Shown one piece after another: positions 1 to 60,510 of a DNA stretch of 64,000 bases. Source of the stretch: Octopus vulgaris (lineage: Eukaryota); the NCBI GenBank assembly GCA_951406725.2, contig OX597832.1, positions 10,850,001 through 10,914,000 of the forward strand. Reading direction: 5' to 3'. Position 1 is the first letter of the stretch, and each line of letters begins with the position of its first letter. The position numbers were made by a program, and so were the translations under genes. The notes under the pieces are model-generated. The model made no database searches and had not been told where the DNA came from. It saw only the letters and a program-made list of their open reading frames with translations.

Positions 1-639
1 ATTATTGTAGATATTTTATTCAGAAAACCACTAACATTAATTGTGTAAGTAGCGGTATGCGTGAAATAGTTTTCAATACTTATTTCTAAAAGTGCGACAT
101 TGATTTTACCCTTATAAACGCTAACACATACACGTAGGCACCGAGATACACTAATATCCATGTGTGTATGTTTGTGTGTGTGCAAAGCTTCCGTGGTTTT
201 TTGAGTCTGTGTATGTATAAATTACACATGTATGCATGTTTATATATTTCCTTGTATGTATGTATGCGAGTAGGGAGATTGAAGCTGGAAACAGTAACAC
301 AGAATTTACTCCTGCAAAGAGTAATAAAAATAAAAATTTATGTAAACAAAGGATGAATTTTCAAGAGATACTGTATTGAAGAGAATTTCATACAAGGAAG
401 ATACCTAAGCGACAAGCAATTGTACGTAAAAGTGTGTGTGTGGTTGCATTTGCATTTCTCAATATGCGTTTATTTGCATCAATATAGAAGTGACAATAGG
501 TGTGCTTGTGTGTGTTTATGTGTGTAAGCGTACGTTAGTTTGTACGATTAAAGGAAAACGAAGGATTGGAAGTATTTTCAAGGAAGTGTTGGAGCGAACT
601 GTTGAGATTTCCTGTTTCAATATATTTTTTTGTATGTAC

Positions 640-25760: not shown

Positions 25761-26093
25761 CATGGTTGGCTAATGGGCTGGATGTAATACTGAAGAAGAA
25801 CAAGAACCCCTGAAATATGCATATACACCCATTTGTATTTTCCCTCTTCGCTGGCATGGTTTTCCTTAAACGTATTGTGATATGTAACAAATCAGTGCTA
25901 AATATAATTTTTATGGTCAATCTGTAGAGATACCCTTAGCAAGTGAAATATTTATATCATCGCGCAATACAAGACGTAGAGTTTGATAACTACTTCATAC
26001 AAAATAGTTATCAAAATATTCTAGCTAACATTATATAAATTATTTATATTACTTATATTTGACGGATATTTATCCTCATCTTGTTTGTTGTTA

Positions 26094-26139
26094 GCACAAC
26101 GTTTCGGCTGATATACCCTCCAGTCATCATCAGGTGTCT
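26094..26139 (-). ncRNA. Minimal type I hammerhead ribozyme motif (Penelope-like, dimer-dependent)
   Basis: Minus strand AGACAC-CUGAUGA-U-GACUG[GAGGGUAUAU]CAGCC-GAAACGU-U-GUGC: intact core, palindromic ACGU helix III, one mismatch in helix II. Confidence 0.7.
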
Positions 26140-26195
26140 TGGGGAAATTTTGAACCTGGGTTCTCATTCCTAAGGTATTCCTAATGTATACCCGT

Positions 26196-26267
26196 GGGAA
26201 TATGGCATAGCGTTAAAAGCGCGGGCTACTAACCCCAAGATTCCGTGTTCGATTCCAGGAAGTGACC
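26196..26267 (+). pseudogene. tRNA-derived sequence (SINE-type head), not a functional tRNA
   Basis: A-box-like TGGCATAGCGTT, anticodon-like arm GGG-CTACTAA-CCC, B box GTTCGATTCC (26247-26256); the acceptor stem does not pair. Confidence 0.75.
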
Positions 26268-26343
26268 ATAATAATAATAATAATAATAATAATAATATCA
26301 AAAAATACCTTCGGAATGAGAACCCAGGTTCAAAATTTCTCCA

Positions 26344-26390
26344 AGACACCTTATGAAGGCTGGAGGGTATATCAGCCGAAATGTTATGTC
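26344..26390 (+). ncRNA. Degenerate hammerhead motif (mirror arm)
   Basis: AGACAC-CUUAUGA-A-GGCUG[...]CAGCC-GAAAUGUU-AUGUC: perfect helix II but a G5>U core change, so probably inactive. Confidence 0.55.
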
Positions 26391-26949
26391 ACCAACAAAG
26401 AAGATGAGGACAAATATCCGTCAAATATAAATAATGTAAATAATGTAAACGATGTACATAATTCCTCATATCTTAGATATAGAACTGTATTATTCAATCT
26501 ATATTAGAACCAATCGTTTACACAATCATACTTTGATATTTTCTATTTCTCTTATATGAGAAGTTTATAATAGCCTACAGCAGGTTTTTAATGTGTAGCA
26601 GAGTGTGTAATAAATTTCGATCGTCTAAGCTATTCAAGCAATTAGTTGGTAAGTCACCTTCCAGTGTTGTTTAAAATCAGAAAATATAACGATAGTTTCT
26701 CTTTATTATCATTTCCTTTTCTAATTACCCGATTGATCTCAACTGATAAAAGTTTTTTTTTTCGACCTAGTCCAATACACGTAAAATTTCTGTCGGCAGC
26801 AGTATATTTTGGTGGTGGAACAGGTTATTGTTTAGGACTCAATATTCAGATTCGAGTGCGTATTCCACTTCCAATCGCTCAGTATAACACCATTCACAGG
26901 ACTTCGGATGTAGCATGAATTCTGGAAGAATATAATTGGTCAGAAGTGC

Positions 26950-52476: not shown

Positions 52477-53214
52477 GTAAAGTTACGTCCATCGTAAAAA
52501 TCCTGTATAAATATTTTCATAAAACTAATTTTTTTGTTAATATTTATTAACAATTTAAAGTTAAACTTGTAATCAATTTAACATTTACTTAGTAATTTAA
52601 AACCTGTTTAATCTTATTAAACAACATATTGAATTTATGTTTGTAGCATACTCTATTCAACAATGTCACGATCTACTCTTTCCATACGTACTTTTCGTGT
52701 AATATTCTTCAAATATATTTCAGTATTATTGATAATTTATTTTCTGTTTGGCCATATTTTATTACATCAATTTTCTAGCATGAGTGATTCAAAGCATCAA
52801 GTTTCACCTGATAATGCCGAGGTGAATATGGAAATAATTATCATTTATATGTCTACATGTTAGAGATGTAATTATGGAAGTTGATACGCGTACGTTATTC
52901 AAATAAGAAGTAGGGCAGGGTAGTAATGTCTATTTATTATGTAATAGTTAAATTATATGTAATTGCTAAAGAAGGCAACAAACGTTCAGAGGCGGGCTAC
53001 GAAAGAGGAGGTAGTGAAGATTTGGAAAAACTATGTATTTACCGCTTCCATGTTTTTCATGCATTCATGAAAAGGACGAAAGAGGTAAATTCATGATTTT
53101 TTTGCGAATGTTGACCATCACTTTTTCCTTATTTAAAAGCTTTACTCTACTCCAAACAGTCTCGCCCTCCTCTCTTTCATTTATATATATGTGTGTATAT
53201 GTATATATATATAT

Positions 53215-53510
53215 AAGAATATTTGCCATCTCAATATGGCTAACCACTAAGGGTGGATGTTACTGAAGCTTGTAGCCACAGGAGAACATCTTCTCCAGCT
53301 GGCTATTGAAACACTTTCTGTGCCCTATCGGTAGTTGCAAAGGGAGGTCATCCTTCCCTCGCCAACCTAAGTGATACGCACGGACTGCAGTTTCTGGGTA
53401 TTTATCCGTCATCAGCGCACGACAATCACCGGTTTTCGATGGAAGGGTCCCAATGGAAATATTTATATCCCTTTACCAGTGACTTTTCGTCACTGATCTT
53501 GTAAAAGTGT
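53215..53510 (-). mobile_element. Short hairpin-rich element with hammerhead ribozyme, embedded in AT-rich/(AT)n flanks (Penelope-LTR- or retrozyme-like)
   Basis: GC-richer cassette beginning right after an (AT)n tract; contains the hammerhead below plus four further hairpins. Confidence 0.7.
53352..53446 (-). ncRNA. Type I hammerhead ribozyme with extended helix I
   Basis: Minus strand CGUGCG-CUGAUGA-CGGAUAAAUACCCA-GAAAC[UGCA]GUC-CGUGCG. Helix I continues through GUGAU/AUCAC, AACC/GGUU, UCG/CGA and CCUUCC/GGAAGG. Confidence 0.8.
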
Positions 53511-53618
53511 ATACAAGCAATAATATATATACTTCACATAATAAATATACTTCATATTGTCGTGCAGTTACTGTCTATACCTCGTTCAGATATTTATTAT
53601 TGTATATATATATATATA

Positions 53619-54004
53619 CTAGCAGTATCGCCCGGCGTTGCTCAGGTTTGTAAGGGAAATAACTATAAAGCATTTTTAGAGAGTTATAGCCAAAAAATAG
53701 CAAAAAAAATGGAAAAAAAATTATGGTAAATTTTTTTTGAGAGTTAAAAAAGGTCGAGTTGGGTCCCCTAGACAGTCTGTGGTTTGTGTTTCTGATTCTC
53801 GACCCCATGTCGAATTTATCGATTTTTTTCAGAACTGGGGGAACTTTTCAAAATTTTCGCTGCGTTAGTTTTGAATTAGGACATTGGGCTATGTGTGTGT
53901 CAAGTTTCATTAGAATCGGTTGAAAGCCATGGTCAGGGTGAGGGTACAACCAAACAGACACACAGAAACACACACAGACAAACTGCCGTTTATATAGAGA
54001 GAGA
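53619..54004 (-). mobile_element. Non-autonomous Helitron with both termini
   Basis: The minus strand starts TC (TCTCTCTCTATATAAACGGCAG) and ends with hairpin CCTGAGCAACGCCGGG then CGATACTGCTAG. It is inserted between A and T with no TSD. Confidence 0.85.
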
Positions 54005-59969: not shown

Positions 59970-60510
59970 GAGGGAACTGTTAGTGTCCAAATAGTTATTA
60001 TCGTAACATAATTAGGGTAACAGTTATATTGATAGGGATTCCATTATATGCCTAGGTAAAAGTATTCGACAAAAATATGTTTATTAGAGGAGTAATTACT
60101 GGTGTCGGAAATCTTTATATTCTACACGTTCATTAAAAAGTTCCCAAATAATGTGGAAAAGGAACTGTTAATTTTCAAATAGTTATTATAGTAACAAAAT
60201 AAGTATAACAGTTATGTGCTTAGTTATTCGAATATATAGGTGAAAGTATTTAAGAAAAATATGATTATTACAAGAGTAGAGAAACCCTTTGATTCAGCAC
60301 GTTCATGAAAATTTCCGCAATAATTTGGGAAGAGAACAGTTATGTTTTAAACAGTTTATTATAGTAAAATGATTAGGATAACAGTTTTGTTCATAGTGAG
60401 GTGAATATATAGATGACAGTATTTGAGGAAAATATGATCATTTGAAGAGTAGAGACAGGCGTGAGAATCCTTTTTATCCTCAACGTTTATGAACTTTCCG
60501 ATATAATTTT
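59970..60510. repeat. Diverged tandem repeat, ~3 units of ~175-190 bp
   Basis: GAAC(T/A)GTTA...AGTT(T)ATTAT(C/A)GTAA...TAACAGTT...AGTATT...AAAATATG...ACGTT(C/T)AT recurs from ~59973, ~60161 and ~60334. Confidence 0.8.

Follow-up and report, generated by a model that had tools for sequence, protein, structure and literature searches.

We consider it highly probable that the window (the whole stretch analysed, 64,000 nt of Octopus vulgaris contig OX597832.1) holds a single, degraded copy of a type I hammerhead motif, and that the 354-nt element carrying it is likely a non-autonomous retrozyme copied by Penelope-like elements into (TA)n-rich DNA. Taken by itself, the hammerhead copy is unremarkable and adds another relic to the known animal retrozymes. 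The features that set this retrozyme family apart are the coupled states of its core and closing pair, a LINE that inserts into it site-specifically, and chimeras joined at hammerhead cut sites.

The hammerhead, recognised by sequence, fold and family comparison, lies on the minus strand at 53352..53446 and has a long bulged helix I. Its core C3-A9 (CUGAUGA) occupies 53409..53415, helix II with loop II 53395..53408, and the GAAA, the palindromic helix III (A15.1 to U16.1, a self-complementary 8-mer) and the GUC triplet 53383..53394, with GAAAC at 53394-53390, UGCA at 53389-53386 and GUC at 53385-53383. Cleavage is predicted after the GUC triplet, between 53383 and 53382. The inner part of helix I pairs CGUGCG at 53421-53416 with 53382-53377 through two G-U pairs, and past an internal loop after these first 6 bp it continues as GUGAU/AUCAC, AACC/GGUU, UCG/CGA and CCUUCC (53446-53441)/GGAAGG (53357-53352). 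All 6 + 5 + 4 + 3 + 6 bp are complete in the minimum-energy fold of 53340-53460, which also pairs GGGA/UCCC. Every element that the first-pass annotation had placed on this strand was thus found at its coordinates, including the helix I with two G-U pairs. Its description of the core as canonical holds for the conserved letters, since C3 U4 G5 A6 N7 G8 A9 / G12 A13 A14 A15.1 / U16.1 H17 are all present, but not for the pair closing helix II: 10.1-11.1 is C·A in the window copy and is unpaired in 27/30 of its nearest copies, the basal C10.1·A11.1 mismatch being a subfamily trait. At this position G-C is strongly preferred, with U·U exceptions published (PMC3088659, PMC7229834), and Perreault et al. 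describe discarding candidates mispaired there (PMC3088659). Helix II is also weak in this copy, as had been noted at first pass, owing to changes at 53405 and 53403 relative to the family sequence GGGU-CAAU-ACCC.

When the two strands of the window were scanned with a descriptor, two matches were returned, and a 6-bp helix I was present only in the hammerhead at 53352..53446. The Rfam hammerhead search that the first pass had proposed as a check gave the motif no score, whether at the gathering threshold or with the cut-off relaxed to E=10, and none of the Rfam hammerhead models matched in the window, in a 1-kb region or in eight loci. The loci without a hammerhead match include three with retrozyme-like units (L061, L224 and L191) and a Penelope locus (L283), and the models therefore miss the whole hammerhead group. 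The single-copy fold of 53340-53460 had z = -1.59, with 14 of 200 shuffles equally stable. Taken with the missing Rfam match, this value would fit a motif arranged by chance in repetitive DNA, a reading that the comparison of copies makes almost inconceivable: the hammerhead is conserved family-wide, its C3-G8 pair switches to U3-A8, and its palindrome is kept through four sequences.

The family is large. With 53200-53620 as DNA query there were 4283 candidates, of which the best 40 were scored, mostly at 90-93% identity. The 33-nt core occurs exactly 74 times in the genome, and a 26-nt 3' motif has 758 exact matches (reversed-pattern control, 0); these matches count both arms of inverted pairs, and the repeat family comprises at least 758 pieces. 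The repeat unit was set at 354 nt from two hammerhead cores lying 354 nt apart in a natural dimer (L061), and is numbered with +1 as the nucleotide after C17 at the cut site. Units are dispersed, circularly permuted and non-coding, with a GC content of 42% and one type I hammerhead each, and the circular fold of the unit has z = -3.48 against 60 shuffles. Parts of the unit recur in contigs from four runs presumed to be RNA, from which strand, ends and circles are not readable. When 100 loci were reduced to 94 by removing six duplicates, the strongest piece per locus ended at +165..176 in 49/94 and at +206..228 in 38/94, that is, within one of two fixed windows in 87/94, and elsewhere in 7/94. 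The 5' ends of these loci are ragged, inverted arms occur in many of them, and (TA)n or (CA)n commonly adjoins them.

Dimers with two hammerheads were found at eight loci (L061, L074, L086, L096, L124, L167, L191 and L224), and no array with more than two was seen among the loci examined. In related but more distant families, dimers of 356 and 375 nt retain the long helix I with different letters. Further retrozyme-like hammerhead families were seen at L191, L204, L221, L223, L092, L224 and L258, some of them also LINE targets, with units of 375 and 356 nt where these were measured. Two local amplifications were noted as well: a 50-nt minisatellite of about 18 copies at L086 (2346-3242), derived from the hammerhead core region (unit 300-348) within one insertion, and a 119-nt tandem of the unit 3' end at L101.

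Conservation of the fold was assessed in a diverse set of 30 sequences, namely 28 copies chosen by a flanking LINE (see below) and not by fold, the window copy and L061; two copies with deletions, two from a more distant family and two without a following unit were left out. In this set 91% of cells were paired, compared with 26-44% in slid controls, and double changes affected 12/25 pairs, a score reached by 0/500 shuffles; these counts contain shared ancestry, a few inherited subfamily events being counted many times. The C3-G8 pair was CG in 18 copies, UA in 9 and UG in 3, the switch to U3-A8 in sister subfamilies being known from nature as an active variant (PMC3088659). At its base, helix II follows the core, with G-C in 9/9 of the U3-A8 copies and C·A or U·A in 18/18 of the C3-G8 copies. 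Helix III was a perfect palindrome in 25/30 copies, with four different palindromes represented, which is expected where hammerheads work as dimers (PMC4209133). Blind RNAalifold on the same set recovered helix II and did not recover helix I; when each sequence was folded singly, the tested helix I pair had P > 0.5 in 20/30. The covariation that the first pass had looked to genomic copies for was therefore present between subfamilies only: among the 30 nearest copies 93% of cells were paired, double changes were found in 2/38 pairs and 186/500 shuffles scored as well, with no covariation beyond the shuffles. The first-pass claims that this is a real member of a ribozyme family and that its helix III is of the palindromic type stand on the genome-wide family, the compensatory changes with which subfamilies keep the fold, and the palindrome counts.

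The same annotation had set this hammerhead apart from a second family in the window, near 26094, and we likewise found no similarity to that element. The second family, also of hammerhead type, lies at 25990-26460 as an inverted pair around a tRNA-like piece and (AAT)n, with a minus-strand core near 26130 and a degenerate inverted copy near 26350, and by eye it looks like a Penelope pLTR pair; comparison with the 354-nt unit and with the sampled GIY-YIG loci gave no similarity.

The window copy has the layout of an ordinary insertion. Its direct arm, at 53215..53528 on the minus strand, runs from unit 208 to 354 and then from +1 to +168; it is 5'-truncated, ends at the first fixed terminus and is followed by (TA)n. 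Of its 314 letters, 18 are not the commonest of their column, and two of these 18 fall in helix II and loop II. The inverted arm, at 53543..53610 on the plus strand, covers unit 159 to 226 and includes the tail that the pair of fixed 3' termini bounds; it is the usual Penelope-type inverted 5' piece, and many loci share this layout. The copy is single, with no partner hammerhead, and repeat finders applied to the window detected microsatellites for the most part and no further copy of the unit. Pairing of helix II is predicted with a probability of 0.18 in the window copy and of 0.76-0.81 in two typical copies, while intramolecular helix III has P = 0.00 in all three; the intermolecular palindrome duplex is predicted at -11.1 kcal/mol.

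One could suppose from the intact core letters and helix I that this copy is an active, possibly co-opted ribozyme cutting a local transcript, and core columns do differ in fewer cells among homology-picked copies (21/795, or 2.6%) than columns elsewhere (mean 5.6-6.0%). However, 2.6% is also the median of non-CpG background columns. Inserted copies therefore decay neutrally, at the background rate, and selection acts on the source elements. With a lone copy in an insertion flanked by (TA)n, and with the predicted pairing of helices II and III given above, we regard an active window copy as very improbable; it is probably a lone decayed relic and inactive. Two other repeats were noted in the window. 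On the minus strand at 53611-54000, adjoining the inverted arm, lies a separate dispersed repeat present at no fewer than eight other loci with 79-97% identity. Its end is CTAG, preceded by a short GC-rich stretch, an arrangement reminiscent of non-autonomous elements of the Helitron type. At 60125-60455 there is a tandem of 173 bp in 1.9 copies.

The anatomy of the insertions is that of Penelope-like elements. Like the unit, endonuclease-positive Penelope elements with pLTR hammerheads are described as having a tail bounded by two fixed 3' termini, truncation at the 5' end, partial tandem copies, inverted arms, microsatellite targets and a palindromic helix III (PMC4209133, PMC8557442, PMC11167929), and for an anole Penelope element two internal RT starts bounding a 'tail' have been shown as the mechanism (PMC11167929). 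Because its copies have this anatomy, the 354-nt repeat is likely a non-LTR retrozyme, an already known kind of element, and the first-pass placement of the hammerhead among retrozymes and Penelope pLTRs fits a 354-nt non-autonomous carrier inserted in the Penelope manner. The unit differs from Penelope elements in having no ORF, a full-size helix I where Penelope has a minimal form, and a tail of about 40-55 nt. Candidate mobilisers are present in the genome: the best 148 of 6136 candidate GIY-YIG matches were scored, and several lie in 781-aa frames that also carry an RT. These Penelope-like elements carry a U3-A8 hammerhead of their own, end at two 3' termini and target (TA)n, and compared by eye the short motifs at either terminus resemble those of the unit. 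They may be Neptune-like, going by a cysteine motif before GIY-YIG that was judged by eye. A young family of this kind, represented by L283, L284 and others, has intact 781-aa RT + GIY-YIG frames and an upstream frame of 330-360 aa.

No autonomous partner sharing extended DNA homology with the unit was found in the 30 GIY-YIG loci that were compared out of the 148 scored matches, and the Penelope partner is therefore one that we infer. This sampling, 30 loci from 6136 candidates, together with an end anatomy the same as that described for Penelope-like elements (PMC8557442), would also suit a family made of truncated pseudo-LTRs left by some autonomous Penelope-like element, its ORF lying among the unsampled loci. 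That origin is improbable. Long copies, up to 635 nt, run from +226 into 227-354 and on into a second hammerhead without an ORF; units join head to tail, with no RT plus GIY-YIG ORF between terminal repeats; the sole coding sequence seen inside units is that of an inserted APE-RT LINE; and the 30 GIY-YIG loci have no DNA similarity to the unit. Two loci in which 3' motifs lie about 5.5 kb apart were considered as full-length Penelope elements and rejected, since they are split units enclosing the LINE.

Among known systems, the animal non-LTR retrozymes described by Cervera and de la Pena (2020, PMC7229834) resemble the unit in being non-coding, 170-400 nt long and below 50% GC, in carrying one type I hammerhead per unit in head-to-tail arrangement, and in their self-paired circular fold and coexistence with Penelope elements; the closest in size are the Mytilus galloprovincialis repeats of about 350-390 bp. 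Unlike the retrozymes described there, the octopus copies are mostly dispersed partial monomers with inverted arms and at most two hammerheads seen per insertion, they combine C10.1·A11.1 with one core state or U3-A8 with G-C, and they are known here from DNA alone. The words 'Octopus' and 'cephalopod' occur 0 times in the main text of PMC7229834; its supplements may list cephalopod hammerheads, as may those of PMC4209133 and of a 2026 preprint. In that preprint, Li, Clavereau and Pollet (10.64898/2026.07.22.740005) present animal retrozymes as non-autonomous derivatives of Penelope, the same dependence that we propose. Their account, as set out in the preprint, is vertebrate-centred and argues from co-occurrence and pLTR homology, whereas the octopus link comes from end anatomy, terminal motifs and one chimera.

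From these observations a cycle can be proposed. A source locus with at least two head-to-tail units would be transcribed on the hammerhead strand. Two hammerheads would then pair through helix III, cut after C17 and release a 354-nt monomer, which a ligase could circularise; a lone hammerhead would cut poorly. This step is suggested because the palindrome is conserved and because of published amphibian and Penelope work; against it, 8/9 Xenopus retrozyme dimers are reported not to have cleaved in vitro (10.64898/2026.07.22.740005). A GIY-YIG nuclease would nick AT-rich DNA, and a Penelope RT would start internally at two points on a template that was uncut or re-ligated. The inserted DNA bears the marks expected at this stage, with ends at +165..176 or +206..228, ragged 5' ends, a frequent inverted arm and a cut site that is crossed. 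In a sample picked by the 3' motif, 40/119 pieces cross the cut site and 0/119 have a 5' end between -5 and +10 of it. The template is therefore an uncut multimer or a re-ligated circle, and cleaved linear monomers are no visible template. After insertion the copies decay, and the family serves as a specific target of a young APE-RT LINE.

The lack of 5' ends at the cut site would equally be explained if the template were a linear uncut multimer, the hammerhead being irrelevant to spreading and no circle being formed. In the anole study no reads ended at the cut, insertion was unaffected by the hammerhead, hammerhead mutants inserted normally in vitro, and the main substrate was uncut RNA (PMC11167929). 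On the other side, the compensatory changes between subfamilies show that the fold is kept in source elements, the cut-site chimeras described below suggest that cut ends exist and get ligated, and mussel and coral retrozymes of similar size are described as accumulating as circles (PMC7229834). We hold a linear template to be a serious possibility, if not the one we favour. It alters only the steps of cleavage and template use, and DNA alone does not separate it from the cycle proposed above, in which the retrozyme is spread by Penelope-like elements.

Two loci (L131 and L132) contained units split by a 5.3-kb LINE whose ORF fragments match PF03372, PF00078 and PF13966, corresponding to an APE endonuclease, an RT and zf-RVT. 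The last 300 nt of this LINE were used as the sole query, giving 238 candidates, of which the best 40 were scored and 30 fetched. The unit follows the LINE directly in 25/30 of these best copies, and in 21/26 when the four loci first found through the unit are set aside. In the remaining five, the LINE runs into the 375-nt relative twice, into a deleted unit once, and twice into a duplicated site with more LINE. Sixteen loci were extended: in 13/16 the LINE is almost complete and the host sequence in front of it ends with the same local form of the site at 0-2 mismatches, and in 3/16 the LINE is 5'-truncated. The target duplication is about 14 bp, unit 297-310, and ends 12 nt before C3 on the 5' strand of helix I; in the window copy the corresponding site is empty (53427..53440, minus strand). 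Occupancy in the 3'-motif sample was 6 occupied to 27 empty sites, after one microsatellite false flag had been dropped. Across 24 loci the LINE ends are 97.6% alike (median; minimum 95.2%), compared with 78% (59-96.5%) for the hosts, and the insertions are therefore independent. Amplification of one ancestral LINE-unit composite as a block was rejected for this reason and because the duplicated site follows the local host variant. A second LINE lineage inserts about 11 nt further in; this was seen in 9/30 matches, mostly the closest, of which four were already known or adjoin known loci. Distant relatives of that lineage insert elsewhere, and three of them (L224, L226 and L227) share another downstream sequence that may be another specific target.

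The LINE is young and appears to be Tx1-like; no named Tx1 reference was returned among its homologues. Target-specific Tx1 LINEs include Tx1L (into Tx1D), Tx1-Mar (into Mariner-N4), Keno (U2) and Kibi/Koshi (microsatellites), and they are described as sharing with the octopus LINE the combination of APE, RT and zf-RVT, one site in a multicopy repeat, target duplication and tandem pile-ups (PMC4494074). At 25/30, its specificity is above Kojima's threshold of >20% of flanks as given in the same source. What differs is the target: none of those described in the available text of PMC4494074 is the helix I strand of a hammerhead retrozyme. We found no report of a LINE targeting hammerhead retrozymes in the literature searched, and Repbase or supplements may already list the LINE or the unit. 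A landing LINE would leave the downstream hammerhead its inner helix I. Close to its end the LINE carries an AATAAA of its own; this counts against its needing a downstream ribozyme, and a safe multicopy harbour is a plainer reading of the targeting than use of the ribozyme.

Chimeras were sought at the cut sites. One (TA)n insertion (L067, also recovered as L298 and L325) joins unit 300-354, ending at C17, to +1 of the Penelope hammerhead cut. The search for chimeras at unit C17 gave 12 matches: this Penelope chimera, one continuing into another repeat, one with a 10-nt deletion, one that is not the unit, and eight point variants. A search for a non-C before unit +1 gave nine matches, eight point variants and one inversion junction. 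When a non-A was sought before Penelope +1, 17 matches were obtained, seven of them point variants and ten (at eight loci) junctions. Two of these eight loci are microsatellite junctions; single loci show a GC-rich piece, an inverted pair joined by a linker, a pair of U6 copies and the unit C17 chimera, and the last two have microhomology and are ambiguous. At the U6 locus (L323/L324, G000:C14:22.908 Mb) two inverted U6 snRNA copies, scoring 88 and 77 bits with Rfam RF00026, each have their 3' end joined to Penelope +1. The GC-rich piece, about 70 nt joined to Penelope +1 at L314 1420-1500, had no Rfam match at the gathering threshold. A control placed three letters downstream gave 19 matches, 15 of them variants and four of them junction matches at three loci, with foreign RNA in none. 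The excess of junctions over this control, counted by locus, had p = 0.06, or 0.03 for clean junctions only, with patterns of unequal length.

A template switch over GUC is possible for the unit-Penelope chimera, because C17 is native to two Penelope copies. U6, like the 5' product of a hammerhead, has a cyclic phosphate at its end, and RtcB is reported to join U6 to 5'-OH RNA before retrotransposition (PMC6789731). The U6/LINE-1 chimeras described there resemble the octopus junctions in having a complete U6 3' end joined to retroelement RNA and then retrotransposed. In the octopus the acceptor is instead the exact cut site of a Penelope hammerhead, and one donor is the 5' product of another hammerhead. 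No report of Penelope + U6 hammerhead chimeras was found in the literature searched. Judged from these sequences, the cut-site junctions suggest that hammerheads may be cleaved and ligated in vivo, with a single case for the unit hammerhead.

A wider account, which we offer as speculative and on balance doubtful, would join these observations: Penelope elements would spread the retrozymes; the LINE would home to the helix I strand across subfamilies; the hammerhead could cut read-through RNA of the LINE 58 nt beyond the LINE's end, so that the transcript would keep the target sequence; and cut ends would be ligated to U6 and to each other and fixed as a DNA record. If true, this would amount to a three-tier parasite system around a ribozyme, in a genome that records where retroelement hammerheads cleave. 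For the in vivo role of Penelope and retrozyme hammerheads, exact U6 and C17 junctions would be genomic evidence of cutting and of ligation of the ends. The subfamilies with C3-G8 and C·A versus U3-A8 and G-C form a natural pair with which to probe tuning toward slowness, and a LINE able to find a single 14-bp site in hosts whose median likeness is 78% provides a natural system for site-specific integration.
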